The notes under the pieces are model-generated. The model saw nothing but the letters and a program-made list of their open reading frames with translations, ran no database searches and was not told the origin of the DNA. A stretch of 15,825 nucleotides of DNA from a virus (taxonomy: Duplodnaviria; Heunggongvirae; Uroviricota; Caudoviricetes). The translations under genes were made by a program, and so were the position numbers. Location: IMG/VR virus record IMGVR_UViG_2778261180_000007; one strand, written 5' to 3'. Below are positions 1,061-15,825 of this stretch, piece by piece (position 1 is the stretch's first letter; the number at the start of each line of letters is the position of its first letter).

Positions 1061-1093
1061 CTTGCTCTTCCGGATACGTCCGGAGAAATCCTG

Positions 1094-1128
1094 AAAGCCC
1101 GCATGGCACAAGCTCTGCGGGCTTTTTT
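1094..1128 (+). terminator. intrinsic terminator downstream of ssrA
   Basis: GC-rich hairpin AAAGCCCGCA...TGCGGGCTT followed by TTTTTT (1122-1128). Confidence 0.5.
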
Positions 1129-1172
1129 GTGTCTACCGTTGTCCGAGGATATCCAGCTAAATCCAGTGATTA

Positions 1173-1224
1173 TTGGTATACGTTTAGGTATACGGTAGGA
1201 TGTATACCTAAACGCGTATACCAA
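1173..1224. repeat. inverted pair of a 21-bp motif (TTGGTATACGnTTAGGTATAC) upstream of int; candidate integrase arm-type or operator sites
   Basis: TTGGTATACGTTTAGGTATAC at 1173-1193 and its near-perfect reverse complement GTATACCTAAACGCGTATACCAA at 1202-1224. A third copy, TTGGTATACGATTAGGTATAC, lies at 12848-12868 next to the attR-like site. Confidence 0.5.
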
Positions 1225-1244
1225 TTCATGAAGGAACGGCTAAA

Positions 1245-2444
1245 GTGGCAAGAACGACACGCCCCCTGACCAACACAGAAGTTCTGCGCGCTAAAGCGTT
1301 AGAAAAGGATCTAACGTTGCATGATGGCGATGGTCTTTTTCTGCTCGTTAAAACGAACGGTAAGAAGTTATGGCGTTTCCGTTATCAACGTCCAACAACA
1401 AAGCAGCGAACAATGATGGGGCTAGGTGCATTTCCCGCCCTCTCACTTGCTGACGCCCGGCGGTTAAGAGCGGATTACCTTTCCTTGCTAGCCAACGGAA
1501 TTGACCCGCAAATTCAAGCTGAGATTGTAGAGGAACAGCAACAAATTGCACTGGACAGTATTTTTTCAACAGTCGCCGCTAACTGGTTCCAGCTTAAAAG
1601 CAAAAGCGTTACCCCTGATTACGCGAAAGACATTTGGCGTTCACTAGAAAAAGATGTATTCCCTGCCATCGGTGAGATTCCAGTTCAGCAAATCAAAGCC
1701 CGAATGCTTGTTGAAGCCCTAGAGCCAATCAAAGCACGTGGGGCGCTAGAGACGGTACGTCGTCTGGTGCAGCGCATTAATGAGATAATGATTTATGCCG
1801 TAAACACAGGTCTGATTGATGCCAATCCAGCATCAGGTATTGGGATGGCCTTTGAGAAACCTAAAAAGCAAAACATGCTTACTCTCCGGCCAGAAGAATT
1901 ACCGAAGCTGATGCGTTCTTTAATTATGTCTAATCTATCCGTTCCGACACGTTGTCTTATTGAGTGGCAACTACTGACCCTTGTGCGCCCTTCTGAAGCC
2001 TCCGGTACAAGGTGGGCAGAGATCGATCTCGCAGCAAAGGTCTGGACGATTCCACCCGAACGGATGAAGGCCAAGCGTGAGCACATTGTTCCTCTATCTT
2101 CTCAGGCATTAGAAATTCTGGAAGTAATGAAACCAATCAGTGCTCATCGTGAACATGTTTTTCCCAGTAGAAATGACCCGAAACAGTCAATGAATAGCCA
2201 AACTGCTAATGCAGCACTCAAACGCATTGGTTATGGTGGGAAATTAGTTGCTCATGGGTTACGATCCATCGCAAGTACTGCACTCAATGAAGCCGGATTT
2301 AATCCTGATGTAATTGAAGCAGCTCTAGCACATAGTGATAAAAATGAAGTACGAAGAGCTTATAACCGCTCAACGTACCTTAATAAAAGAATAGAACTTA
2401 TGGCATGGTGGGGAAGGTTTGTTTATAAAACAAACCTTTTATAA
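1245..2444 (+). CDS. int: P4-family tyrosine integrase (site-specific recombinase)
   Basis: 399-aa ORF with a GTG start preceded by AAGGA. N-terminal arm-binding-like region (LHDGDGLFLLVKTNGKKLWRFRYQRP) and C-terminal catalytic signature (AHGLRS ... AHSDKNEVRRAYNRSTY) typical of P4-like integrases. Position directly 3' of a tmRNA gene. Confidence 0.9.
   Translation: MARTTRPLTNTEVLRAKALEKDLTLHDGDGLFLLVKTNGKKLWRFRYQRPTTKQRTMMGLGAFPALSLADARRLRADYLSLLANGIDPQIQAEIVEEQQQIALDSIFSTVAANWFQLKSKSVTPDYAKDIWRSLEKDVFPAIGEIPVQQIKARMLVEALEPIKARGALETVRRLVQRINEIMIYAVNTGLIDANPASGIGMAFEKPKKQNMLTLRPEELPKLMRSLIMSNLSVPTRCLIEWQLLTLVRPSEASGTRWAEIDLAAKVWTIPPERMKAKREHIVPLSSQALEILEVMKPISAHREHVFPSRNDPKQSMNSQTANAALKRIGYGGKLVAHGLRSIASTALNEAGFNPDVIEAALAHSDKNEVRRAYNRSTYLNKRIELMAWWGRFVYKTNLL
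2414..2444 (+). terminator. possible terminator hairpin inside the 3' end of int
   Basis: AAGGTTTG (2414-2421) pairs with CAAACCTT (2431-2438) and is followed by TTTTATAA. The int stop (2442-2444) directly abuts the stop of the convergent ATPase gene (2445-2447). Confidence 0.3.
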
Positions 2445-4142
2445 CTATACTTTAAAGAACTTATTTGTCGAAGATAACTCAAGGATCGAGTTACTCATCA
2501 TCATTTTCATGTCCGCATCTTCTGAAAACTTATCACTTAATATTGACACAATATATTGACCATTTATATTATTTGCTTCAAAAAATATATCTCTAATTTG
2601 ATTCACATCGACATCTTCAATGCTATCATGAATAACAAAAGTAGGTCTCTTTAATTTAATCTTATCCACAAACTTAATATAAGCCAAATCAAATGCAGTT
2701 ATTTCACCTTTCTTCTTGCCGCCATTACTGTTTGGTGTAACGCATGATATATCAAAATTACACTTACCTTTATCAACATCAAAGGAAAGATCAAAAATGT
2801 ATCTTTCCCCATATATTTCCTTTGTAAGATCACCAAAAAACTCATTGAAAATCTCGATGTTTTTTTCCAGACCTTGAACTGCTAACTCTATTTCTAAAAG
2901 TAATTTCTCTCGACTATCTTCAAGAGATTTTATAAGGGCATTTGTATCATTAATACGCGAAAGATTAGACTCTATGCTAGCAAGATTTTCACGTAATTCA
3001 GTAAGCTTATTAAATAATTGATTTATAGACTTTAATGTTTCAGGTTCTTTGATTGTTCTAAATAGGGATGATTCTTGTTCATGAAGATCATTGATTTTTT
3101 TATTTACAGTTTCTATTTCTTCTTTTTTCTTTAACAATTCAGATTCTAAAAAACTGATTTTATTCTTAATAATATCATTATGGAACAATACCATTTCTTC
3201 GTAAGTCCTTTTAAGTTCCCCATTAAAATAAATCCCCGCAGAATTATATATTTCCATTAAATCATTTTCTACAAGTTGTGTGATATTATTCTTCAAGGAC
3301 AAGATCGATTCTTCGATATTTCTTACTCGCATATTTAAGGAGGCATAGCTCAAAGAATAATCACTGATATTCTTCTGTATTTCTGAAAGCTTTTTTAAGC
3401 TTTCATCATGACTATCTTTAAAATCGAAGTTCTTAATATTTCTTTCCGCCTCTGCAATTTCTTTCTTCAGAGGCTTAATCATTTTTGCTAAAACAGTCTC
3501 TCTATTTGGATTCCTGTATGCGGCAAGATATGTCTTTTGTTTTTTTATCTCTTTGTTAAAATCACCTTTTTTCTTTATCAGAGGTAACCCATTGAACCCA
3601 AATAAAAACAAGTATAATAGATCATAGACATCAGGAGTCGTATTCCCATGTAAGAAATTAAGCGTTTTCTGCATTTTATCATTCGTGTTTCTAATAAATT
3701 TATGCGAAACATTCCTCAGTGATGGCTTATCTGTAGTTAACCCAAACACTGCTTGAGCTATAAATTCAGAATATTGTTTCTTATCTACTTCAACATCATT
3801 TAAAAAATATTTTGAATTTTTATCATCAATAGATATTATACGTGAAACAACTGCCTTTTTATTTTCTACCGTATTGAAATCCAATGAAAATTTCAAAACA
3901 TTATTATTAATTAACGATACAATTTCAGGTATATCTTTTCCAAACTCTGCATCATGATAAATATCATGACCTGATGACATAAATAAATAATCTAAAACAC
4001 GCGATAATGTGGATTTACCTACACTATTGCCGCTATCTTTGCCTGATGTTCTTTTATTTACAATTAGATTCAGACCGTCTTTAAACGTCACCTCTCTTAC
4101 AAGAGAGTCATTTTTTAAAATAATAAGTTTATTGAGCCTCAT
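2445..4142 (-). CDS. ABC-type (SMC/RecF-like) ATPase with long central coiled-coil; candidate defence-system ATPase
   Basis: 565-aa ORF. N-terminal strand-plus-P-loop layout (LNLIVNKRTSGKDSGNSVGKSTL, Walker A lysine K43). About 300 aa of heptad-like K/E/L/N-rich sequence. C-terminal signature-like SNGGKKKG followed by Walker-B-like TFVIHDSIEDVD. Start overlaps the upstream gene by 14 nt; GGTGGA lies upstream of the ATG. Confidence 0.75.
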   Translation of the reverse strand: MRLNKLIILKNDSLVREVTFKDGLNLIVNKRTSGKDSGNSVGKSTLSRVLDYLFMSSGHDIYHDAEFGKDIPEIVSLINNNVLKFSLDFNTVENKKAVVSRIISIDDKNSKYFLNDVEVDKKQYSEFIAQAVFGLTTDKPSLRNVSHKFIRNTNDKMQKTLNFLHGNTTPDVYDLLYLFLFGFNGLPLIKKKGDFNKEIKKQKTYLAAYRNPNRETVLAKMIKPLKKEIAEAERNIKNFDFKDSHDESLKKLSEIQKNISDYSLSYASLNMRVRNIEESILSLKNNITQLVENDLMEIYNSAGIYFNGELKRTYEEMVLFHNDIIKNKISFLESELLKKKEEIETVNKKINDLHEQESSLFRTIKEPETLKSINQLFNKLTELRENLASIESNLSRINDTNALIKSLEDSREKLLLEIELAVQGLEKNIEIFNEFFGDLTKEIYGERYIFDLSFDVDKGKCNFDISCVTPNSNGGKKKGEITAFDLAYIKFVDKIKLKRPTFVIHDSIEDVDVNQIRDIFFEANNINGQYIVSILSDKFSEDADMKMMMSNSILELSSTNKFFKV

Positions 4143-4362
4143 ATACTATTCCACCATTTCCATCTAACTCAATTGCGCCGATTATGAAAAGCCAATCTAA
4201 TGAGTAAAGAAAAAGATCAAACGATAACTCGAAGATAGAATTTACTAAATCATACAATCGAGATATTTCAATGACCATTGAATCATTACTTTGAAAGATC
4301 CCAAGCACTACACTTCCAATATATACAGGATTTGCTTTTGGATCCGTATCAATTGTAATCAT
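4129..4362 (-). CDS. hypothetical small protein (77 aa) with hydrophobic C-terminal half; operon member
   Basis: ORF preceded by GGAG with 8-nt spacing. Overlaps both neighbours by 14 nt, indicating coupled translation. Hydrophobic segment FDLFLYSLDWLFIIGAIEL. No family recognised. Confidence 0.5.
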   Translation of the reverse strand: MITIDTDPKANPVYIGSVVLGIFQSNDSMVIEISRLYDLVNSIFELSFDLFLYSLDWLFIIGAIELDGNGGIVYEAQ

Positions 4363-4897
4363 TTGGATTCTCCAGCACTATACATTCGATAATAGCATAG
4401 CTAACAATCATACGAATGCCATAATCAATATCTTCCTGTAAAAACTCTGAATCTAAATTAGAACACGAACTAACTGTTTCTTGAGCAGCTCTAATAACAT
4501 CATCTATAATATTATCCGAGTTTTTCCTTATGAGTTCAATGTTAAATGGTTTCTCATAAAGACCATATAATCCCAATGCAGTATTATAATAACCTCTAAA
4601 CTGTCTTTTCAATTTGACACTACCATTTAAAATTATAGCATCAAGTGTTTTTATGGATTCATCAACTAGCAGAGCATCTTCTTTATAAAGTTCAGCTACC
4701 CATCTGTTTCTTTTAAGATCATTGAATTCTATTTTAACATCAATATTTGATGCTATTCTGTTTAAGTTTTGCTCGCTACCAACTGAATTAGAAATAATTT
4801 CAATTAACTTACCAATAACACTGGCTCTTAACATTCTTGGCTGGTTGTTTATATGCACAGGACCAGTATTATTATTGAAATTAACACCAGAACCCAT
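4349..4897 (-). CDS. hypothetical protein (182 aa); operon member
   Basis: ORF preceded by GGGGG. Starts 3 nt after the stop of the upstream small gene. N-terminus carries an NNNTGPVHINN motif that repeats the C-terminus of the upstream protein. No catalytic motif recognised. Confidence 0.65.
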   Translation of the reverse strand: MGSGVNFNNNTGPVHINNQPRMLRASVIGKLIEIISNSVGSEQNLNRIASNIDVKIEFNDLKRNRWVAELYKEDALLVDESIKTLDAIILNGSVKLKRQFRGYYNTALGLYGLYEKPFNIELIRKNSDNIIDDVIRAAQETVSSCSNLDSEFLQEDIDYGIRMIVSYAIIECIVLENPNDYN

Positions 4898-4899
4898 AA

Positions 4900-5172
4900 T
4901 TACCCCCGATTATCAATATTCACAGGACCATTATTATCTTGAAAATATTGAGAACGCGCTCCTTGATTAATGAAGTTTCTATTAGTTGTAATTTTTACAA
5001 TCTGGGAATTAAGATCATTTATTGTAATGTTAAGTTGTTTTATCTCATTATCTTTCTTGGTTACTTGCATAGTCTGATATATTGCTATACATCCAGAGAT
5101 CACCCCAACAATATATCCAAAGGCACTTACATATTCGTTAGCAAGTAGTGATGCAATCATTTGGAGCTCCAT
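4900..5172 (-). CDS. small membrane-anchored protein (90 aa; 86 aa from the alternative ATG at 5160); first gene of the operon
   Basis: Predicted N-terminal transmembrane helix (IASLLANEYVSAFGYIVGVISGCIAIY) followed by a charged helical stretch. The second in-frame ATG at 5160 has a better-placed GGAG. C-terminus NNGPVNIDNRG. Confidence 0.55.
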   Translation of the reverse strand: MELQMIASLLANEYVSAFGYIVGVISGCIAIYQTMQVTKKDNEIKQLNITINDLNSQIVKITTNRNFINQGARSQYFQDNNGPVNIDNRG

Positions 5173-5429
5173 TTCAAGCTGAAAGATTTAAAGTCACAAC
5201 AATCTCATCCTATTAGGGTAGCTAGGATAGCAACTCATGAAGAGTAAATAAATAGGTATTAATCATTATCGTTTACATGATCTAATTCAACATAGATCCA
5301 CTCATGGCCTCTATACTTTCTCATAAACACAGTGTTTAGCTATGTGGGCTTAAGAGGTCTAAATTGATGTACTTACTTTATCAATTGATATAACCCCAAA
5401 TTATAATCGTTTCATATCATTGACGCGCA

Positions 5430-5448
5430 GTGCTTTCCCCGCCTCGCC
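5430..5448 (-). other. cos site: 19-nt cohesive-end sequence GGCGAGGCGGGGAAAGCAC (minus-strand reading)
   Basis: Plus-strand GTGCTTTCCCCGCCTCGCC is the exact reverse complement of the cohesive-end sequence I recall for P2 and P4. It lies between psu and the cargo operon, where cos sits in an integrated P4. Confidence 0.75.
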
Positions 5449-5548
5449 CGCCCGCTTTGCGGGGCGGTTTTAATGCAGTTGCACTGACACGCTCAGACCG
5501 CGCCGGGAATGGCGCGGTCTGCAGAAAATGAGGCAGGGAAACGCATGC

Positions 5549-5582
5549 AAAGCCATGCACCTTATCGATGCATGGCTTTTTT
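5549..5582 (+). terminator. hairpin plus T-tract between cos and the psu 3' end
   Basis: AAAGCCATGCA (5549-5559), loop CCTTATCGA, TGCATGGCTTT (5569-5579), then a T run. May stop read-through into or out of the late operon; orientation of function uncertain. Confidence 0.35.
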
Positions 5583-5612
5583 CAGTAAAAACGGGCGGAT
5601 TTTCGGGGAATT

Positions 5613-6185
5613 TTACACAGACTGACGTGATGCCAGTTGCGCACTTTTACGCGAAAAAATCATGTTCTGCGCAGGGGTGAATTTTTCACGGCTGTCATCC
5701 ACCGAAGCCGCGTCAGGTCTGAATCCAATGGCCGTTAAAATGTCGCTATCCTGTGCGGAATAATTAATTTTTTCACCCTTCGCAAGCCAGGACAGGAGGG
5801 CTTCACGCAGGGCATCTGTGGCACGCTGTATGGCACAGTTTCGGGCAATGGCCGTCAGCTCACTGTAGCCCATCAGCTCCGGTGCCAGTGCCGCCGCCAG
5901 TGCTGTGCCGTGCTGCTGCATAAAATCATTCAGCCGGTCGCGGATGCTGATGTGCTGAACGGCTTCATGCGAACGAATATAACGACCGGCGGCCTGATTC
6001 ACCTGCCATTTTCTGACTTCGATAATATTGCGTAATTCGTCCAGGCGACTGACGTTTCTGCCTTCTCCTGACAGAAGCCGCAGATATTCCTGTTCGGCCG
6101 CAGCCAGCTCATTTTTGCGTTGCAGCCATGCTGCTTTGTTATTCTGACAGGTGTCAAAGGCCTGCTGTAAGGCTGTGCTTTCCAT
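5613..6185 (-). CDS. psu: Psu (polarity suppression / capsid decoration protein), P4-like
   Basis: 190-aa ORF, the size of P4 Psu, last gene of the sid-delta-psu array next to cos. Sequence MESTALQQAFDTCQNN... recognised as Psu-like. Confidence 0.85.
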   Translation of the reverse strand: MESTALQQAFDTCQNNKAAWLQRKNELAAAEQEYLRLLSGEGRNVSRLDELRNIIEVRKWQVNQAAGRYIRSHEAVQHISIRDRLNDFMQQHGTALAAALAPELMGYSELTAIARNCAIQRATDALREALLSWLAKGEKINYSAQDSDILTAIGFRPDAASVDDSREKFTPAQNMIFSRKSAQLASRQSV

Positions 6186-6258
6186 CGTTATCTCTTTCTC
6201 ATCATGCTGAAGAATAAAAATACGGTGTGCGGCGACGGCCGGTGTTAACCGGCAGCCC

Positions 6259-6759
6259 TCATTCCAGACGCAGCGAATATGATTGTGTTTTTAACCGTAC
6301 TGGCGGCAGTTCCTGTTTTTCATGCAGGCTTTCTGCAAGCTCGTCCGGCGTGACCGGGCGGACAATGAAGCGGTTGATGGTCTGAAGCGTTTTAAACACC
6401 AGACCACAGCCCGGATCCGTGCACACATAAAAACGCTCGGTGACTTCCTGAGACAGACGCCGCGATGTTCTTGACAGTGCAAGGCCTTTACATCTCCGAC
6501 AACAATATCCGGTAACAAGCATTCTTTTCGGGCGTTTCATACTGCCGGAGGCTGACGTCAGTGAATCGCGGTATCTCTGTTTGCCTGAAATGTATTCCAT
6601 TCCTGAATCTTTACTGTCAGAGAAAAAGCTTTCACTCGCTTCAAATGTCGCAGAGCAATAAATATTCCGGCACTGTGCAATCATTATCTTGGTGCCATCG
6701 TCCATGAAATGTGCGCGACGGGTGTGAGCAACATGTCCACACGACGGGCAGTAAATCAT
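6259..6759 (-). CDS. delta: Delta, Ogr/Delta-family zinc-finger late-gene activator (tandem Ogr-like repeats)
   Basis: 166-aa ORF with two Ogr-like units, each carrying CPxCGH...C-x-N-x-x-C(S)ATF-type Cys motifs (MIYCPSCGHVAHTRR...QCRNIYCSATF and ...CRRCKG...CTDPGCGLVF). ATGA overlap with the sid stop. Confidence 0.85.
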   Translation of the reverse strand: MIYCPSCGHVAHTRRAHFMDDGTKIMIAQCRNIYCSATFEASESFFSDSKDSGMEYISGKQRYRDSLTSASGSMKRPKRMLVTGYCCRRCKGLALSRTSRRLSQEVTERFYVCTDPGCGLVFKTLQTINRFIVRPVTPDELAESLHEKQELPPVRLKTQSYSLRLE

Positions 6760-7490
6760 GACAGCAGTCCTCTGGCCTTAAGCTCTGCTCCCTGCTGGTC
6801 TATTTTGTCCTGCCACACCTTGCGCTGTGCCGGTGTGCCTGCCACCTCATAATCCATGTGCGGGAGTGTTGCCGCTGACAGTCCGGTCAGCCGGAGAACC
6901 GGCTCACCGGTGAGGCTGATTTGCATCTGTTTTATTTTCTGTTCCAGCGATGATTTCACCTGCTGCATGACAGCCTTTTCCGGTGCGACGTAGCCCTGAT
7001 GGCCGGTGGTGTTGGCGAGCGGATTTTCCTGTACCAGGATGCTCAGATGCATTGCCCGGACAAGCACCTCACAGGTTTCATTCAGGGCGTGTTCCAGCTC
7101 ATGCTCTGCATACAGACTCAGAAGGTGATGATGTGCCTTCCGGTAGGCGGTGGCCGTGCTGTCACACGCCCCTTTCAGGCGTTCACGTTCAAAATTCAGC
7201 ACCACGGCCAGATTGTCATATTCCTGTACCAGCTCCCGGCGTGCCACGCGCTCAATGTGGCGCTGTTTCAGCTCGTCGCTCAGGACACCACCGGCTGCAC
7301 GAAAGGCCGTGCGCCAGTCGTCAGCGTCGTTTCCGTCGGCCTGCGCCAGCGCATTTTTTTCCTGCTCTGCCCGTTCAATGGCCGTGACGGTCTCATCCAT
7401 CAGGCGGGCGTTCTCAAGATGGGCGGCTCTGGCCTTTTCCAGTTGTGCCAGCGCGGGTTGCAGATATTCAGGGATGGTGTTGTCAGACAT
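6756..7490 (-). CDS. sid: Sid (capsid size determination, external scaffold), P4-like
   Basis: 244 aa from the ATG at 7490, which is preceded by AGGAG (MSDNTIPEYLQPALAQ...). The ORF track's earlier ATG at 7556 lacks a Shine-Dalgarno and would overlap the promoter region. Confidence 0.8.
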   Translation of the reverse strand: MSDNTIPEYLQPALAQLEKARAAHLENARLMDETVTAIERAEQEKNALAQADGNDADDWRTAFRAAGGVLSDELKQRHIERVARRELVQEYDNLAVVLNFERERLKGACDSTATAYRKAHHHLLSLYAEHELEHALNETCEVLVRAMHLSILVQENPLANTTGHQGYVAPEKAVMQQVKSSLEQKIKQMQISLTGEPVLRLTGLSAATLPHMDYEVAGTPAQRKVWQDKIDQQGAELKARGLLS

Positions 7491-7562
7491 TTTCCGGCTC
7501 CTCGTCACTTCAGGTTGAGAAAATTGTGACGTACACCGGACAACAACACGACGCATTGCAGA

Positions 7563-7580
7563 TGTGCCAGCCCTGACACA
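7563..7580 (-). promoter_or_regulatory. candidate Delta/Ogr activator site (TGT-N12-ACA) of the sid late promoter
   Basis: TGTGCCAGCCCTGACACA. Its centre is about 82 bp upstream of the sid ATG, compatible with a dyad centred near -55 and a ~27-nt leader. Confidence 0.35.
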
Positions 7581-7659
7581 GGAGACTCATCCTCAGACCG
7601 GCAAGCCAGGAAAAGGTCGCAGGAAAAACCGGCTTACTGTTTGTTTTTTTATATTTTAC

Positions 7660-7763
7660 TGTTCACCTCTGTTCACCATAAGAAAAAAGATAAGTAATAC
7701 AGTAAGTTAAAGGGTGAACAATCGCAGTAATGACTGTTCACCGTCTGTTCACCACTGTTCACC
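7660..7763. repeat. iteron cluster: six copies of the P4 type-I octamer TGTTCACC; candidate alpha-binding origin
   Basis: TGTTCACC at 7660-7667, 7670-7677, 7735-7742, 7746-7753 and 7756-7763; inverted copy GGTGAACA at 7713-7720. Flanked by a T-rich tract (7641-7657). Lies between the divergent sid and vis promoters. Confidence 0.7.
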
Positions 7764-7922
7764 CGTTGATGGGCTTTTTGTGCTGTTTATTACTGTTTGT
7801 TTTTATTAATTCGCCGGGAATGAATAAGAAAAAACGATTTGTATTTCACTATAAAAATTACGAATTGCTTTAAGTGGCTTTAAATGACTTTAAGTGGAGA
7901 TGAACAAAAAACACACAAGCAT

Positions 7923-7940
7923 TGTAAGGCTGCCGGAACA
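7923..7940 (+). promoter_or_regulatory. candidate Delta-dependent late-left promoter activator site (TGT-N12-ACA) upstream of vis
   Basis: TGTAAGGCTGCCGGAACA. Centre is about 111 bp upstream of the vis ATG, and about 395 bp upstream of the putative early promoter. Confidence 0.3.
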
Positions 7941-8042
7941 AATCCCCCCTGTTGCGTCTGCTGAAAATATTCACAAAATAAAACGCTACCCGAAGCCGGA
8001 CGGACTTATCCGGTGCTGTATGGACATTAACGAGGTAGCCCG

Positions 8043-8309
8043 ATGCAAGCTGTTTTTTCTTCCCCGTCTCCTGCCCCTGTGACGCCACTGATGCCGCTGC
8101 CGGACATCACACAGGAGCGTTTTTTACGTCTGCCGGAAGTGATGCACCTGTGCGGCCTGTCACGCTCGACCATCTATGAACTCATCCGTAAGGGGGAATT
8201 TCCGCCGCAGGTGAGTCTTGGCGGTAAAAATGTGGCCTGGCTGCACTCTGAAGTCACCGCATGGATGGCCGGCCGCATTGCCGGACGCAAACGGGGGTAT
8301 GACGCATGA
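8043..8309 (+). CDS. vis: Vis/AlpA-family DNA-binding regulator (excision and late-transcription control)
   Basis: 88-aa ORF, the size of P4 orf88/Vis. AlpA-type helix-turn-helix core [48 protein letters not shown] lies 7 nt upstream of the ATG. Confidence 0.8.
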
Positions 8310-8896
8310 TGATGCCCGCTCTGCAAAAACTCCCTTTTTCTGGCTTGCCTTTTTCCGGCATTTGCGGATATAGTTTTTCCGTTGCCGCAAAATCGGCAGC
8401 CGGGCGTGAGAACCCGTGTAACTCGAAGGCGACATATGACGCGCCATGCGTCTTTTTTTGTGTCGCAATCAACGCCACAGAGCGCCAGATTATGGTGTGG
8501 CGTGTGGTTTGCCGTGCAGGTATGATCCTGTTCGCAATCGCATGTTATGCCACTGAGTCAATGGTAGCTCAGGCGGGGCAGCCTCCGGGCTGGCCGGTAT
8601 TCTTCGAGGCCGGTATTCTCACCCCCGTCTGGGCTATCGCCATCGAGCGTGAGAACTCCGGCGATAGCAGTTATTTGCTACTCGAAGGAGGCTGCCTTAT
8701 GGCTACAACCCTTACCCCCTCACACCCTGAATTTGTCTTTGTGTTTGCGGCTGTCCGTCGCGCAGACCGTCATCCCCGTATCTGTATGCTTCGCACCGTC
8801 GCCGGTGATGAACGCAGTGCCCGCCGTTCCCTTGTCCGTGACTATGTGCTCTCCCTTGCTGCCCGTCTGCCGGTGGTGGAGGTGTCCCGTGCGTAA
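8306..8896 (+). CDS. eta: eta-like long ORF (194-196 aa, three consecutive ATGs) enclosing kil and spanning the immunity region
   Basis: Open frame from an ATGATGATG start that overlaps the vis stop (ATGA). Matches my recollection of P4 eta: about 197 codons, three candidate start codons, kil nested in the same frame at the 3' end. Coding status itself is uncertain. Confidence 0.4.
8345..8374 (+). promoter_or_regulatory. candidate early promoter (PLE-like)
   Basis: TTGCCT (8345-8350), 18-bp spacer, TATAGT (8369-8374); alternative -10 GATATA with 16-bp spacer. Lies just upstream of seqA. Confidence 0.3.
8406..8687 (+). promoter_or_regulatory. P4-type RNA immunity region: seqA (8406-8428), seqB within a candidate CI RNA (8602-8622), seqC (8649-8687)
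   Basis: seqA GTGAGAA...CTCGAAG and seqC GTGAGAA...CTCGAAG are each complementary to seqB CTTCGAG...TTCTCAC (reverse complement GTGAGAAtaccggcCTCGAAG). seqC runs into the GGAGG Shine-Dalgarno of kil. Confidence 0.45.
8699..8896 (+). CDS. kil: Kil-like small protein (65 aa)
   Basis: ATG at 8699 preceded by GGAGG that overlaps seqC. 65 codons, the size I recall for P4 Kil. Shares frame and stop with eta. Confidence 0.5.
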
Positions 8897-9176
8897 TAAA
8901 AAAGCCCCTCAGACCGTCTCAGCACGTCATGACGCCCGTGAACACCTCAGCATTGAGGCTTACCATAAGCTCAACCGCGCCAGCGCCGTATCCCAGTTTG
9001 TTGGGGGTGATTTGATTCACCGTGAACTCTCCGGCCTGCATCAGCTCTACATTCCGCATATTTTCAGCTACCTGAATGAAGATATTGATTTTGTGCTGAA
9101 TGAGCTGAAAGCCAAAGGCCTGTGCCGCGATTTTCTCGCCCAGCAGAAAGACCGGGGAGACAGGACGCATGTTTGA
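8889..9176 (+). CDS. Eps-like protein (95 aa), candidate helper-derepression factor
   Basis: GTG start at 8889 preceded by GGAGG and overlapping the kil stop. Stop overlaps the start of the orf151-like gene. Assignment is by position and size relative to P4 epsilon. The ORF track's longer form (from 8649) lies in the immunity region. Confidence 0.5.
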
Positions 9177-9624
9177 TTTTCCCCAGCCCGGTGAGATTTA
9201 CCGTTCTGCCGGTTTTCCCGATGTGGCCGTAGTCGGCATTCTGGAAGACGGTATTCCGTGGGAAATGCCGTACCGCTGCCCGGACATTGTCTGGAACCCG
9301 TACCGCCGTAAATTCAGTATTCTTGTGCGTATCCTCGCCGACGGGCGCACCACAGACATCCCGCTGGGGCGTTTTCTGCGGGAATTTACCTGTGACCGTC
9401 CTGACCTGTTTAAACGCAGCCCCGTAAACCGGCATGCGGTACTGAAAGAAATGGCCGGAGACCCGGAATTACAGAAATGGCGGGAGAAATATCTGGATAT
9501 TTACCCGCAGGAGCCTGTTCCGGTCAGCCGGGCGGCACCGGTGGCGCGGGAATGGCGGGAAATTCCCCGCACGGAGCCTGACCCGGAAATCACCCCGGAT
9601 AACAGTTACCGCAATTATCTGTAA
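9169..9624 (+). CDS. P4 orf151-like hypothetical protein (151 aa)
   Basis: Size and position (between eps and alpha) match P4 orf151. Start overlaps the upstream stop. Confidence 0.7.
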   Translation: MFDFPQPGEIYRSAGFPDVAVVGILEDGIPWEMPYRCPDIVWNPYRRKFSILVRILADGRTTDIPLGRFLREFTCDRPDLFKRSPVNRHAVLKEMAGDPELQKWREKYLDIYPQEPVPVSRAAPVAREWREIPRTEPDPEITPDNSYRNYL

Positions 9625-9759
9625 TTAAAAAACGACACCCGAAAAATTAAATGTGCGTATTCGCGCAGGGATACGCACGTCTTCAGGAGACGCAGATATG
9701 CCTTATCAGTTAATGCAACCGGCACGGAATGCAGTCATCTGTCACAGGGAGGAAAGCAA

Positions 9760-10080
9760 ATGAAAACACCCTTACCGCCCGTCTTACGCGCTGCCCTTTA
9801 CCGTCGCGCTGTCGCCTGTGCCTGGCTGACCGTGTGCGAACGTCAGCACCGCTACCCGCATCTCACCCTTGAGTCACTGGAGGCGGCCATCGCCGCTGAG
9901 CTGGAAGGCTTTTATCTGCGCCAGCACGGTGAGGAAAAAGGGCGTCAGATAGCCTGTGCCCTGCTGGAAGATTTAATGGAATCCGGCCCCCTGAAGGCCG
10001 CGCCGTCGCTGTCCTTTCTCGGGCTGGTTGTGATGGATGAACTCTGTGCCCGTCACATAAAAGCGCCGGTACTGCACTGA
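9760..10080 (+). CDS. P4 orf106-like hypothetical protein (106 aa)
   Basis: GGGAGG lies 7 nt upstream of the ATG. Sits directly upstream of alpha. A 21-codon upstream ORF overlaps its start. Confidence 0.65.
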
Positions 10081-10094
10081 AGGAGAACAACACC

Positions 10095-12428
10095 ATGAAA
10101 ATGAACGTAACCGCCACCGTCAGCCATGCACTCGGCCACTGGCCGCGTATTCTCCCGGCGCTGGGGATTCAGGTGCTGAAAAACCGTCATCAGCCCTGTC
10201 CGGTCTGTGGCGGGAGTGACCGCTTCCGTTTTGATGACAGGGAGGGGCGCGGCACCTGGTACTGCAATCAGTGTGGTGCCGGTGACGGCCTGAAACTGGT
10301 TGAAAAGGTGTTTGGTGTTTCCCCGTCCGACGCGGCCGCAAAGGTGGCTGCCGTGACCGGCAGCCTGCCCCCGGCTGACCCGGCAGTGACGGCCGCCGCC
10401 GGTGCTGAAACAGACGCTGCCCGGAAGAACGCCGCCGCACTGGCACAAACCCTGATGGCAAAAACCCGTCCCGGAACCGGTAACGCCTACCTGACCCGCA
10501 AGGGCTTTCCCGGCCGGGAATGCCGGATGCTGACCGGCACACACAGAGCCGGTGGCGTGAGCTGGCGCGCCGGTGACCTTGTGGTGCCACTGTATGACGA
10601 CAGCGGCGAACTGGTTAACCTTCAGTTAATCAGTGCTGACGGCCGTAAGCGCACCCTGAAAGGCGGACAGGTCAGGGGCACCTGTCACATCCTTGAAGGA
10701 CAGAATCAGGCCGGAAAACGTCTGTGGATAGCGGAGGGATACGCGACCGCACTTACCGTGCATCACCTGACCGGTGAAACGGTGATGGTGGCGCTTTCTT
10801 CCGTGAATCTCCTTTCTCTGGCCAGCCTTGCCCGGCAGAAGCATCCGGCCTGTCAGATTGTCCTTGCTGCTGACCGTGACCTCAGCGGTGACGGCCAGAA
10901 AAAAGCCGCCGCAGCCGCAGATGCGTGTGAAGGTGTTGTTGCCCTGCCGCCGGTCTTCGGTGACTGGAATGATGCCTTCACGCAGTACGGCGGGGAAGCC
11001 ACCCGTAAGGCCATTTATGATGCCATCCGGCCACCGGCTGAAAGCCCGTTCGACACCATGAGCGAAGCGGAGTTTTCCGCCATGAGTACCAGCGAAAAGG
11101 CCATGCGTATCTATGAGCATTACGGCGAGGCGCTCGCGGTTGATGCCAACGGCCAGCTTCTGTCCCGTTATGAAAATGGTGTCTGGAAGGTGCTGCCACC
11201 ACAGGACTTTGCCCGGGATGTGGCCGGGCTGTTTCAGCGGCTGCGCGCGCCGTTCTCCTCCGGGAAGGTGGCCTCCGTGGTGGACACCCTGAAGCTGATT
11301 ATTCCGCAGCAGGAAGCCCCCTCCCGCCGCCTGATTGGCTTTCGTAACGGCGTGCTCGACACGCAGAACGGCACGTTCCACCCGCACAGTCCGTCACACT
11401 GGATGCGCACCCTGTGCGATGTGGATTTCACCCCACCGGTGGAAGGGGAAACGCTGGAAACCCACGCCCCCGCGTTCTGGCGCTGGCTTGACCGTGCCGC
11501 CGGTGGCCGTGCGGAAAAACGCGACGTGATTCTGGCCGCACTGTTTATGGTGCTGGCAAACCGCTATGACTGGCAGCTCTTTCTGGAGGTGACCGGTCCC
11601 GGCGGAAGCGGCAAAAGTATCATGGCCGAAATAGCCACCCTGCTGGCCGGGGAGGATAACGCCACGTCGGCCACCATTGAGACGCTGGAATCCCCGCGTG
11701 AACGTGCCGCGTTAACTGGCTTCTCACTGATACGCCTGCCGGACCAGGAAAAATGGAGCGGCGACGGAGCCGGACTCAAGGCCATCACCGGCGGCGATGC
11801 AGTGTCCGTTGACCCGAAATACCGGGATGCGTACTCCACGCACATCCCGGCGGTGATTCTGGCCGTGAACAATAACCCGATGCGCTTCACCGACCGCAGC
11901 GGCGGCGTGTCACGCCGGCGGGTGATTATTCACTTCCCGGAACAGATAGCCCCGCAGGAGCGCGACCCGCAACTTAAGGACAAAATCACCCGCGAGCTGG
12001 CGGTCATCGTGCGTCACCTGATGCAGAAGTTCAGCGACCCGATGCTCGCCCGGTCACTGCTTCAGTCCCAGCAGAACTCAGACGAGGCACTGAACATCAA
12101 ACGGGATGCCGACCCGACGTTTGATTTTATCGGCTATCTGGAAACCCTGCCGCAGACCAGCGGCATGTATATGGGGAACGCCAGTATCATCCCGCGTAAC
12201 TACCGTAAATACCTCTATCACGCCTATCTGGCCTACATGGAGGCAAACGGCTACCGGAATGTACTCAGTCTGAAAATGTTCGGGCTGGGGCTGCCGGTGA
12301 TGCTGAAGGAATACGGGCTGAATTACGAGAAGCGCCATACCAAACAGGGGATACAGACCAACCTGACGCTGAAAGAGGAAAGCTACGGCGACTGGCTGCC
12401 AAAATGTGACGACCCTGCAACAACCTGA
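10095..12428 (+). CDS. alpha: Alpha: P4-type primase-helicase replication protein
   Basis: 777 aa, the size of P4 alpha. AGGAG Shine-Dalgarno. N-terminal zinc motif CPVCGGSDRFRFDD...CNQCG. Toprim-like EGYATAL and AADRD. Helicase Walker A VTGPGGSGKS. Iteron arrays lie on both sides. Confidence 0.9.
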   Translation: MKMNVTATVSHALGHWPRILPALGIQVLKNRHQPCPVCGGSDRFRFDDREGRGTWYCNQCGAGDGLKLVEKVFGVSPSDAAAKVAAVTGSLPPADPAVTAAAGAETDAARKNAAALAQTLMAKTRPGTGNAYLTRKGFPGRECRMLTGTHRAGGVSWRAGDLVVPLYDDSGELVNLQLISADGRKRTLKGGQVRGTCHILEGQNQAGKRLWIAEGYATALTVHHLTGETVMVALSSVNLLSLASLARQKHPACQIVLAADRDLSGDGQKKAAAAADACEGVVALPPVFGDWNDAFTQYGGEATRKAIYDAIRPPAESPFDTMSEAEFSAMSTSEKAMRIYEHYGEALAVDANGQLLSRYENGVWKVLPPQDFARDVAGLFQRLRAPFSSGKVASVVDTLKLIIPQQEAPSRRLIGFRNGVLDTQNGTFHPHSPSHWMRTLCDVDFTPPVEGETLETHAPAFWRWLDRAAGGRAEKRDVILAALFMVLANRYDWQLFLEVTGPGGSGKSIMAEIATLLAGEDNATSATIETLESPRERAALTGFSLIRLPDQEKWSGDGAGLKAITGGDAVSVDPKYRDAYSTHIPAVILAVNNNPMRFTDRSGGVSRRRVIIHFPEQIAPQERDPQLKDKITRELAVIVRHLMQKFSDPMLARSLLQSQQNSDEALNIKRDADPTFDFIGYLETLPQTSGMYMGNASIIPRNYRKYLYHAYLAYMEANGYRNVLSLKMFGLGLPVMLKEYGLNYEKRHTKQGIQTNLTLKEESYGDWLPKCDDPATT

Positions 12429-12440
12429 CCCTCATGACTC

Positions 12441-12800
12441 ATCTGACCGGCATCTGCCGGTCTTTTTTCATCCCTGAATCCCCCGAAGGTGAACAATCCA
12501 CTGTTCACCCTTCACCGTATATTCACCCGTTATCACACTGAAATTAAAAGAGAAAAATGAAAGGTGAACAGTGTGAACAATCAAATCAAAAAAAACTTTT
12601 TTCTCCCTGTGTGATTTCAGTACGGGGGATTAATCACCGGTATGAGTCACACCGGCAGAATGCCGGAGGTGAAGAATCGAATGTTCACCCTTCACCCATT
12701 ATTCACCACCTATCAAACTGAAATAAAAGGAGAAAAAAGAAAGATGAACAGTGTGAACAGTTCTTCCGAAAAAAAATTTTTTTCCTGTACGATATAGCAT
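12441..12800. repeat. two tandem ~180-bp imperfect direct repeats with TGTTCACC/GGTGAACA iterons and A8/T6-7 tracts; cis-replication-region-like
   Basis: Unit 1: GGTGAACA 12488-12495, TGTTCACC 12502-12509, degenerate copies 12510-12528, GGTGAACA 12563-12570, GTGAACA 12573-12579, A8cT6 12588-12602. Unit 2 repeats this 180 bp later (TGTTCACC 12682-12689, A8T7 12769-12783). Each unit begins with a CCGGCA...TGCCGG hairpin. Confidence 0.65.
12445..12468 (+). terminator. intrinsic terminator of the alpha (left) operon
   Basis: GACCGGCA, loop TC, TGCCGGTC, then TTTTTT, 17 nt after the alpha stop. Confidence 0.55.
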
Positions 12801-12847
12801 CAATCCAAGTAAAAATGCGCTTTCATTTCACATTAACTTACAGCCAT

Positions 12848-12868
12848 TGGTATACGATTAGGTATACA
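12848..12868. repeat. third copy of the 21-bp TTGGTATACGnTTAGGTATAC motif (candidate arm-type site)
   Basis: TTGGTATACGATTAGGTATAC, 54 bp before the attR-like sequence. Confidence 0.4.
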
Positions 12869-12921
12869 CACAAAAACTGAATTAAACAAAATCATTAAAA
12901 ATCAAAGCAATACAATATTTA

Positions 12922-12943
12922 TTCAAACTCCGCCAGCCCACCA
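12922..12943. other. attR-like degenerate copy of the ssrA 3' end (TTCAAACTCCGCCAGCCCACCA)
   Basis: Aligns to the attL core TTCAACTCCCGCCAGCTCCACCA with three single-base indels. Lies immediately beyond the last P4-like feature and before the chromosomal autotransporter gene. Confidence 0.35.
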
Positions 12944-13070
12944 ATCATGATTGGACGGTATAAGGACAACACCAATAAAAACAGGAAGTTAGCAGTCTCA
13001 GCAGGACACCGACCAGACGGTGAAGAGACATAAAAGGATACGCAAAGGAGCCGCGGCTCCTGGTGACATG

Positions 13071-13094
13071 AAAGCCCACAGATGTGGGCTTTTT
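13071..13094. terminator. hairpin with T-tract just 3' of the autotransporter gene (orientation ambiguous)
   Basis: AAAGCCCACA, loop GAT, GTGGGCTTT, then TTT; A-rich on the other side, so possibly bidirectional. Confidence 0.35.
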
Positions 13095-13103
13095 CGTTGA
13101 TGG

Positions 13104-13430
13104 TCAGAACGACCAGTTCACACCAGCTACCCCGTTCCACGGGGATTCCACACCGGCACCATGGCTATACCCCACCCCAAGATGCCCGCTTAACGTACTG
13201 CTGAATGAGGCTTTAATACCTGCCTGGTATATTCCACGTCTGCCCGACAAATCATTGACAAAATTACCGTCACTATTCACTTTCACCCGATTATCATCGA
13301 CAAATTCTTTGCGCACAGCCGCCTTCAGGCAGGGTTCAATTTCCATACCGTTCCCCAGACGCATGTTGTAACTCAGCGTTGCACCCAGTTCACGATATAA
13401 ACTGCGGGTATCGACTGATTTCGATTCCAT
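13104..13430 (-). CDS. autotransporter C-terminal beta-barrel segment (108 aa), in a different frame from the upstream passenger ORF
   Basis: Ends ...GVAGVNWSF with a terminal aromatic residue, typical of outer-membrane beta-barrel C-termini. Separated from the passenger ORF by a stop and a frame change at 13431-13461. Confidence 0.5.
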   Translation of the reverse strand: MESKSVDTRSLYRELGATLSYNMRLGNGMEIEPCLKAAVRKEFVDDNRVKVNSDGNFVNDLSGRRGIYQAGIKASFSSTLSGHLGVGYSHGAGVESPWNGVAGVNWSF

Positions 13431-13458
13431 GCCATTGGATAAATGATATTCAGGGTTA

Positions 13459-15825
13459 TCAGCGGTGAACCCCCGTTAACGATGCATACGGCGTCAGGTT
13501 CCAGTTACCATCGGTAAATCGCATCCCGGTTTCAATGTGACCGCCCAGCCCGTTGCTGCGATAACTGCCGTTGGCGGCTCCACCGCTGCCAACCGTGGAG
13601 TCGCGAGCTTCGGTACCTGCTAATACCAATAAATTACCGCCATTTTCCAGCAACATATTGGTCGCTAAATTGCCGGAAATGGAAAAAGTGCCGTACTGGT
13701 GAGTACCGCTGATTTCAATACCGTTAGCCGTGCTCGTCTGGAGAGCGGCACCGCTGTTCTGGACGATATCTGTCGCTTTGCCATTATCGTTAACTGTCAG
13801 CGTACCGCCTTCATTGATCTTTGTTTTTATTGCCTCTCCGTTAGCTGAAACTGTTTGTATTCCGCCGTCGTTAATCGTTGTCTCATTCGCCACCCCCTCG
13901 ACGATTTGTTCGCCGCCGGTGAGCGTCGTGCCTGTCGCAGTGGCTTTTGTTTTGACGATCTCCCGTCCGCCCGTATTGACCTGTGTTTTGTCAGAAGAGG
14001 TGTCTGACTCCATGGTTAACACGCCGCCATTTGCCAGCAGGATATTGTTCGCCGCACCCTGCTCGATGCTGAACGCGACGCCATCCGCGCGTGTTCCTGT
14101 GACCCGCGTCGCCCTGGTGGTTGCAACCAAAGCGTCCTGGCTACTCTGCTGTATCCCCGTTGCGCTGCCTTTCTCCCGCACATCGAGTGTGCCGCCGTCA
14201 TTAAGCACCGAGTTTTCAGCCAGACCGCCCTCATTAACTACCTGTGAACACCCATTAATAATGGAACCTTCCGCTGTCCCGTTTGCCATAATTTGTTGTA
14301 GGCCAGAGACGATATCGGTATTGATTGCCTTACCATAATTCTGAACGGTTTGCGTGCCACCATTGATGTGTGTTTTCTCTGTTGACCCACCATCAACAAT
14401 TTGTTCACCACTTTCGATATTTGCCTCAGTGGCTAATCCATATACCGTTTGCTTGCCACCTTTGATATTTGCTTTATCAGAAGTGGCACTGGCATATATT
14501 GTTTGGGTGCCAGCACTATTGAGTACAGTGCCAACATCTTTTCCATAAACATCCATTTTGCCGTTGGCATTAATAATCGTATCAACTGCCCGGGAACCAG
14601 TGACGACTGTTAATGAGCCAGCGTTTTCCAGCACTACATTTTTAGCTTCTGAATTCCTGATGTAGAAAGCATCACCATAACTGTTGGTTCCTTCGATAAG
14701 GGTTCCGGAAGTTGTGGAAGCAATTAATGCGCCGCCGGATTGTTGCTCAACATGCTTAGCCTCACCACCGTCCTGAACCTCCAGAACGCCACCATTATTA
14801 AGTCTGGTGGTATCTGTTTTAGCCTCCTTCTGGGCAATCAGCTTACCGCCAGCATCAACGGTAGTATTTTTCGCCGAGGTTTTAGCCACTACCGTCAGTT
14901 CGCCGGTATTTTCCAGCACAACATAATTAGCCTCCCCTCCGGTAATAGTGAAGTGAGAGAGCTTGTTGTATCCTTCAATATCAGTCCCTGCGCCCGTGTT
15001 GGCAACTAAAGCACTGCCCGTCTCCTGGTTAACCCCATGTGCAATACCACCGGTATAGACAATCAGCGAGCCTCCGGCGCTAATATTGCTGCCAGTTGCC
15101 GTACCATCTTTCTCAACAACCTGCCGGCTCCCGGAGGATATAATTGTCGTGTCAGCTTTCCCGCCGCTCTTGATATTTTGCGTTCCGCCGTTGATATTGG
15201 TACCCGTGGCAATACCATGATTATTAATATTCTGTGTACCACCATTGATTATGGTATTGGTCGCGTTTCCGGTAACATCCATTACCCCGCCGTTATCTAT
15301 TCGGGTCGCATCAGCTTTAGCATTCGTTAAAACTGACATTGTTCCTTTATCTTTAATAATCGTCTTGTTTGCCGAACCATATGCGTTTATGTCTAAATGA
15401 CCACCGTTTTCCAGCAACACATTGTCTGCCACGTGATTGTGGATGGAGAATGCACCTTCACTATTCGTACCGCTCACCGTCGTACCGTTAGTGTTTGTTT
15501 TTAAAATTGCACCATCGTGCTGGGTAACATTTGTTGCCGTACCACCACTAACATCAAGCACGCCACCGGAATAAACTTCAATAACATCCGAGGAGCTGGT
15601 GTAATCAACAATTTGCGTACCACCAGAATAGATCTGAGTATTTTTTGCCGTTGACTTATTATTCAGAGACTGAGTTCCACCTTCAATCGTCGTGTCCAGC
15701 GCATGGCTTTCATATACTCTTTGCTCACCGCCATTTTTAATGGTGGTTGTTCCTACTGTGCTCTGTTCAACAGTAACCGGCTCATTTAAACCGTCTGGTC
15801 TGTTTCCTCCGGCTCTACAAAAATA
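13459..15825 (-). CDS. AIDA-I/Ag43-type autotransporter adhesin, passenger region (5'-partial; continues beyond the window end)
   Basis: Reading frame is open from the window edge (15825) down to the stop at 13459-13461. Dozens of G/T/N-rich ~19-aa beta-helix repeats (e.g. INGGTQNI, TIINGGTQ, VLENAGSLTVV). The ORF track's GTG at 15561 is not the true start. Confidence 0.8.
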   Translation of the reverse strand, partial: YFCRAGGNRPDGLNEPVTVEQSTVGTTTIKNGGEQRVYESHALDTTIEGGTQSLNNKSTAKNTQIYSGGTQIVDYTSSSDVIEVYSGGVLDVSGGTATNVTQHDGAILKTNTNGTTVSGTNSEGAFSIHNHVADNVLLENGGHLDINAYGSANKTIIKDKGTMSVLTNAKADATRIDNGGVMDVTGNATNTIINGGTQNINNHGIATGTNINGGTQNIKSGGKADTTIISSGSRQVVEKDGTATGSNISAGGSLIVYTGGIAHGVNQETGSALVANTGAGTDIEGYNKLSHFTITGGEANYVVLENTGELTVVAKTSAKNTTVDAGGKLIAQKEAKTDTTRLNNGGVLEVQDGGEAKHVEQQSGGALIASTTSGTLIEGTNSYGDAFYIRNSEAKNVVLENAGSLTVVTGSRAVDTIINANGKMDVYGKDVGTVLNSAGTQTIYASATSDKANIKGGKQTVYGLATEANIESGEQIVDGGSTEKTHINGGTQTVQNYGKAINTDIVSGLQQIMANGTAEGSIINGCSQVVNEGGLAENSVLNDGGTLDVREKGSATGIQQSSQDALVATTRATRVTGTRADGVAFSIEQGAANNILLANGGVLTMESDTSSDKTQVNTGGREIVKTKATATGTTLTGGEQIVEGVANETTINDGGIQTVSANGEAIKTKINEGGTLTVNDNGKATDIVQNSGAALQTSTANGIEISGTHQYGTFSISGNLATNMLLENGGNLLVLAGTEARDSTVGSGGAANGSYRSNGLGGHIETGMRFTDGNWNLTPYASLTGVHR

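Follow-up and report, generated by a model that had tools for sequence, protein, structure and literature searches.

Between positions 13104 and 15825, on its minus strand, the 15,825-nucleotide (nt) stretch IMGVR_UViG_2778261180_000007 carries what is most probably, at about 0.95 by our estimate from sequence comparison, an inactivated Escherichia coli autotransporter gene, a remnant of chromosomal ypjA/ehaD by descent. We refer to the whole stretch, which is recorded as a virus of the Caudoviricetes, as the window. Compared with an intact orthologue, this copy has three disabling lesions: it has lost 1320 bp, its frame is shifted by +1, and it joins an insertion sequence (IS). Nothing that we found contradicts the status of this ypjA copy as a pseudogene. 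An initial annotation, made from the letters alone, had proposed that an autotransporter gene of the ypjA-like or AIDA family, lying next to a prophage, was broken by a frameshift plus a deletion. The alignment with K-12 ypjA bears this out, giving both the +1 G and the 1320-bp deletion, and the neighbor proved to be a P4-like satellite in ssrA.

We compared the window by megablast with 5426 complete E. coli genomes, the panel behind all counts of complete genomes given here. Positions 13104-15825 (minus strand) fall in the gene that the Prokaryotic Genome Annotation Pipeline (PGAP) names "adhesin-like autotransporter YpjA/EhaD". As the intact reference we used MG1655 ypjA (K-12, b2647; 4581 nt, 1526 amino acids [aa]). 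By blastn, the window aligned with it in two colinear blocks, with 96-97% nucleotide identity across every retained part: ypjA nt 594-2786 (97.3% over 2193 nt, no gaps) and nt 4097 to past the stop codon (96.3%). The setting matched as well. The window holds, in order, smpB (1-483), the ssrA transfer-messenger RNA (698-1060), the satellite prophage of ~11.9 kb, and the ypjA remnant. In the prophage-free strains IAI1 and E67, ypjA directly adjoins ssrA, and in K-12 the cryptic prophage CP4-57 fills the same ssrA site; on the far side of ypjA, related genomes (K-12, IAI1, E21845/O/A, and E67) carry a pinH remnant, ypjB/ypjC, and ileY. Colinear sequence and conserved position beside ssrA thus identify the gene as the ypjA orthologue.

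Overexpression of YpjA/EhaD increases biofilm formation, and the protein is classed with the self-associating autotransporters (PMC9289746, PMC12547504). The window copy shares with K-12 ypjA and ehaD of enterohemorrhagic E. coli, which encode an AIDA-I-type (type Va) adhesin, the ssrA locus, the AIDA repeats, and a barrel that ends in ...GVNWSF. Unlike them, it is without codons 927-1366, is shifted by +1 past codon 1405, and meets an IS at nt 594.

In a classical type Va autotransporter, a single polypeptide combines five parts: an N-terminal signal peptide, a beta-helical passenger with its autochaperone, then an alpha-helical linker, and finally a C-terminal barrel of 12 strands, which must be complete and is the route of the passenger to the cell surface. 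Which of these parts does the window still encode? On the minus strand, 789 codons run without a stop from the window edge to a TGA at 13459-13461 (frame 13459-15825). A 108-aa open reading frame (ORF) follows in another frame at 13430-13104 and ends in ...GVNWSF. In Pfam searches, the passenger ORF (700 aa) matched PF16168 (AIDA) in eight stretches (E=3.8e-130) and had no barrel match, and the 108-aa ORF matched PF03797 (Autotransporter) only at profile positions 164-254 of 255, the last third. The pertactin/autochaperone domain PF03212 was matched by neither ORF of the window. In K-12 YpjA, Pfam places that domain at 1057-1179 and the barrel at 1265-1504, with a Pro-rich stretch at 1179-1240 between them. 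Hence, the window encodes a beta-helical passenger, and neither an autochaperone nor a complete 12-strand barrel in one frame with its linker. What remains of the barrel is 160 of ~262 residues (K-12 1367-1526), split as 39 + 121 codons over two frames. Thus, the barrel-terminal ORF ending in GVNWSF was correctly recognized in the initial annotation, as was a barrel region too short for a full translocator, the linker and autochaperone being gone. Its reading of at least 789 codons of beta-helix repeats open to the stop held for the open frame and the AIDA repeats; ~18 of those codons are IS66 sequence.

Three lesions in the ypjA remnant

Between the two ypjA blocks, the window lacks exactly 1320 bp, or 440 codons (K-12 residues 927-1366). 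When the window was set against both K-12/E67 flanks, left and right, in a three-way display, the deletion junction fell at 13577..13587 (minus strand). The parental flanks, GCAAGGGTGGGGC and GCAGCGGTGGAGC in the K-12/E67 comparison, have GCA in common, and the crossover falls in this shared GCA inside the imperfect repeat GCAnnGGTGGnGC. Such a junction is suggestive of illegitimate recombination or slippage at microhomology. E67 carries an intact ypjA by ssrA whose barrel side shows no difference from the window around the junction; its passenger, at 95.5% identity, is more distant from the window than that of K-12. No closer intact parental allele than those of E67 and K-12 was identified.

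The deletion preserved the reading frame, which passes from ...ARDSTVG across the junction into SGGAANGSY... On its upstream side lies the passenger fragment, with AIDA-type beta-helix repeats, at 13588..15772 (minus strand); it corresponds in frame and without gaps to K-12 nt 594 to ~2778 (codons 199-926). Fused to it in frame at 13462..13576 (minus strand) are ~39 barrel codons (K-12 residues 1367-1405) and then an out-of-frame VHR, so that the segment, translated and compared with the K-12 protein, reads ...STVGSGGAANGSYRSNGLGGHIETGMRFTDGNWNLTPYASLTGVHR up to the stop. The deletion cost the gene its distal passenger, its pertactin/autochaperone domain and Pro-rich linker, and ~102 residues (~40%) from the start of the barrel. 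We searched the genome panel with a 161-nt probe centered on the junction, scoring as carriers those genomes that covered at least 80% of it; intact alleles match one half only. The junction was present in 323 of the 5426 genomes (~6%).

The frameshift is a separate event, with the deletion ~110 nt upstream of it. At 13470..13474 (minus strand), the window has a run of five G residues (G5) where K-12 has four (G4), and this +1 insertion is the sole gap in a 669-nt alignment with K-12. The frame departs from the barrel past K-12 residue 1405, 39 codons beyond the deletion junction, reads VHR, and ends at the premature TGA (13459..13461, minus strand) that the frameshift produces. The rest of the C-terminal barrel (K-12 codons 1406-1526 plus stop, by alignment) continues in the +1 frame at 13104..13469 (minus strand), and the 108-aa ORF is simply this frame read from its first Met, the ATG at 13430 (K-12 Met1419). 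The initial annotation had put the lesion at 13431-13461; it lies instead in the G run, with the deletion at 13577-13587. The extra G probably arose by homopolymer slippage in the G4 run. Just 3' of the ypjA stop, the sequence shows a hairpin conserved with K-12, AAAAAGCCCACA-TC-TGTGGGCTTT (13071..13094, minus strand), which is presumably the ypjA terminator; it was not among the terminators called by a consensus scan.

The third lesion lies at the window edge. Positions 15773..15825 (minus strand) are the last 53 nt of an element of the IS66 family (ISCro1-like) that ends in ...GAGCCGGTTAC, and the window stops within it. These 53 nt match no ypjA allele. They are 100% identical to positions 6001-6053 of the LSN03-016011/A locus, where an annotated IS66-like element of the ISCro1 family has its tnpA-side end and is bounded by an 8-bp duplication, ACTCAGTA. 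The two copies break off at the same base. In the window, ypjA-derived sequence begins at 15772, and the IS terminus ...CCGGTTAC directly adjoins nt 594 of the gene. Of the open frame, the initial 53 bases (~18 codons, YFCRAGGNRPDGLNEPVT) are therefore IS and not adhesin. This junction occurred in 0 of the 5426 complete genomes and in none of eight public contigs that encode the exact 108-aa ORF, and we conclude that it is private to the source strain. A simple insertion would put ypjA nt ~587-594, with an 8-bp duplication TGTTGAAC, at the far end of the IS.

We propose that three events lie behind these lesions. Recombination between the short imperfect repeats would have deleted the 1320 bp in frame; a +1 slip in the G4 run would have brought in the TGA, leaving the last 108 barrel codons as an orphan ORF; and an IS66-family element at nt 594 would finally have come between the remnant and its promoter, start codon, and signal peptide. 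The deletion and the G insertion appear to be old, and the IS recent. With three of the five autotransporter parts lacking and the IS lying between the remnant and its start, this copy would be expected to display no surface adhesin and to yield no product.

Alternative readings of the two frames

Could the stop simply be a homopolymer sequencing or assembly error, so that a single frame in truth runs from the passenger to GVNWSF? The change is one base in a G run, a classic site of such errors, and a single K-12-like assembly, BHUCD02 (position 7612), has G5 in an otherwise undeleted ypjA that is annotated "frameshifted"; that G5 is possibly itself a homopolymer assembly error, or else recurrent slippage at this run. 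However, G5 was present in all three of the independent deletion-allele loci that we read directly (E21845/O/A, IAI1, and LSN03-016011/A), while MG1655 read directly has G4 at the same run. A synthetic 200-nt query combining the deletion with G4 found no perfect match in any of the complete genomes. Its best matches were 99.5% identical over a 201-nt span, and since they span one nucleotide more than the query, they carry the extra G. A converse query, K-12 with G5, which would find undeleted G5 alleles, had best matches of 99.8% over 401-nt spans, which indicate G4; this query sees K-12-like backgrounds only. Moreover, assemblies from many projects contribute to the 266 public blocks that index the exact 108-aa ORF. 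Because the deletion and G5 are common to so many genomes and assemblies, the frameshift is no sequencing error, and the pair is old and inherited together in a lineage that includes IAI1. Restoring the frame would still leave no functional translocator, given the 1320-bp deletion. We therefore reject this alternative, which the initial annotation had held in reserve and which we regard as very improbable: G5 recurs in the relatives, the junction in the 323 carriers, and the 108-aa ORF across the public blocks.

There is next to no chance that the two ORFs are unrelated genes, one for a protein made of passenger alone and the other for a separate, small barrel protein. They do lie in different frames, and the 108-aa ORF has a RefSeq protein accession of its own. 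Yet both are colinear with one K-12 gene at 96-97%, with the G-run indel as their sole separation, and the 108-aa piece covers only positions 164-254 of the 255-position barrel model. The alignment with intact ypjA that the initial annotation had suggested, yielding two colinear blocks in which the deletion and the frameshift could be placed, refutes this reading.

We also considered whether the truncated allele might still function, as a beta-helix that strains free of secondary lesions would place in the periplasm or secrete in trans, or as a switch operated by slippage in the G run. In some strains (e.g., L010) the passenger frame is open from the native ATG for ~930-968 codons, and the deletion itself is in frame. 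Against this, carriers have been hit repeatedly, by further frameshifts, by a nonsense mutation, and by IS elements; five G residues make a short run for phase variation; 40% of the barrel is gone, as are the linker and the autochaperone; and in the window copy an IS stands between the remnant and the gene start. We give retained function very little credence. A more specific proposal, that the deletion allele is partly active, remains speculative and highly unlikely: it would make a signal-peptide-bearing beta-helix of ~930 residues plus 39 barrel residues, either periplasmic or displayed in trans via a ycgV-type barrel, with paralogous remnants serving as a recombination reservoir for barrels. 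Such export or trans display would in any case be moot for the window copy, whose gene start is cut off by the IS.

Our reading of the locus as an inactivated ypjA has certain limits. The window ends inside the IS, and the 5' 593 nt of ypjA, with the signal-peptide part, lie outside the view, either retained beyond the IS or lost. G5 was read directly in three deletion-allele loci and in eight public loci encoding the exact 108-aa ORF; its linkage to the deletion in the other carriers among the 323 is drawn from the best 12 matches to the deletion-plus-G4 query. In addition, the microhomology at the junction was judged against K-12 and E67 only.

The ycgV-like patch and decay of related alleles

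The deletion allele is already known and annotated. RefSeq treats it as a pseudogene, "incomplete; missing C-terminus", together with an orphan barrel ORF. Elsewhere that ORF is WP_000444409.1, [quoted passage not shown], which differs from the window ORF at the patch described below. What is new here is the IS66 junction, and it is not surprising. IAI1, E21845/O/A, O121 RM8352, and others share with the window an identical deletion junction, G5, and 99.7% identity overall; the window differs from these alleles by the private IS66-family insertion at nt 594 and by six substitutions that form a ycgV-like patch. The deletion alleles differ from each other at few sites.

The differences between the window and the E21845/O/A, IAI1, and LSN03-016011/A loci cluster at 13260..13340 (minus strand), where six consecutive diagnostic sites are ycgV-like. 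In a three-way alignment, these six sites match ycgV, and the flanking sites at 13400 and 13181-13128 match ypjA. Over a 121-nt segment at the patch, the window matches the barrel remnant of the ycgV locus (ymgJ-minE) in W2-5 and many other genomes at 100% identity. The patch is a probable tract of ectopic gene conversion from this paralogous remnant, between 81 and ~218 nt long (13182-13399). It alters the 108-aa ORF, for instance changing EVEPW to EIEPC, and the EIEPC-type variant of the ORF is widespread in draft and metagenome assemblies. The patch may have gone unremarked before; it is unsurprising.

The ycgV-locus autotransporter is a paralog whose barrel is ~96-100% identical to that of ypjA and which, at full length, has the same architecture. 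It differs in its chromosomal locus (ymgJ-minE) and flanks, and its role here is likely that of patch donor only. In some genomes, PGAP labels the full-length ycgV-locus paralog "ypjA" (e.g., locus L007, 2183-5485). Many other genomes have only a 345-nt barrel remnant there (e.g., locus L008, 4913-5257).

Relatives that carry the deletion and G5 have taken further hits. Three of them (L009, L011, and L013) have an A6-to-A5 frameshift at window-equivalent 15646, one (L014) has a CAA-to-TAA nonsense change at window-equivalent 14295, and two (L016 and IAI1) have IS3-family insertions. Independent extra lesions of this kind are the pattern of an unselected, still decaying remnant, and their repeated occurrence argues against a retained function of the truncated allele.

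The adjoining satellite and ypjA as a marker

The P4-like satellite prophage integrated in ssrA occupies 1061-12945. It encodes an integrase (1245-2444), Psu (5613-6185), Delta (6259-6759), Ash (8306-8896), and an alpha-type primase-helicase (10095-12428). Its boundary with the ypjA locus is the attachment site attR at 12921..12945, where the ssrA 3' end is imperfectly duplicated. Homology to K-12 (psaA remnant) and to strains that lack the prophage ends at 12921-12945, and prophage-free loci have the genuine ssrA 3' end at the equivalent position. The P4-type iteron TGTTCACC occurs 11 times in the window, where 0.43 matches would be expected, in clusters at 7660-7763 and 12488-12689. By sequence, these clusters look like the P4 replication origin (ori) and crr. 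The second lies within a 120-nt direct repeat (12483-12602 and 12663-12782, 81% identical).

Rfam matches to C4 antisense RNA, its a1b1 target (c4-a1b1), and isrK fall at 8368-8644 (plus strand), in the immunity region of the satellite. A 565-aa ORF by the integrase (region 2445-4142 and 4349-5172, minus strand) matched PDC-M68B (1e-45) and LmuB (4e-16) in PADLOC and DUF2326/AAA_21 in Pfam. It is a candidate anti-phage defense gene in the variable cargo position of the P4-like element. Two small ORFs adjoining it had no family matches.

For the autotransporters themselves, the ycgV-like patch offers a small, clean case of ectopic conversion between paralogous remnants. G5 and the deletion junction combine into a handy clade marker, and the IS66 junction is a strain-specific one. 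Counts of ypjA based on gene names would mix the ypjA and ycgV loci. Likewise, tools that score ypjA/ehaD as "present" from nucleotide matches would count a non-producing allele as an adhesin, a miscount that bears on adhesiome and virulence-gene surveys in which ypjA serves as a marker (e.g., PMC12547504).

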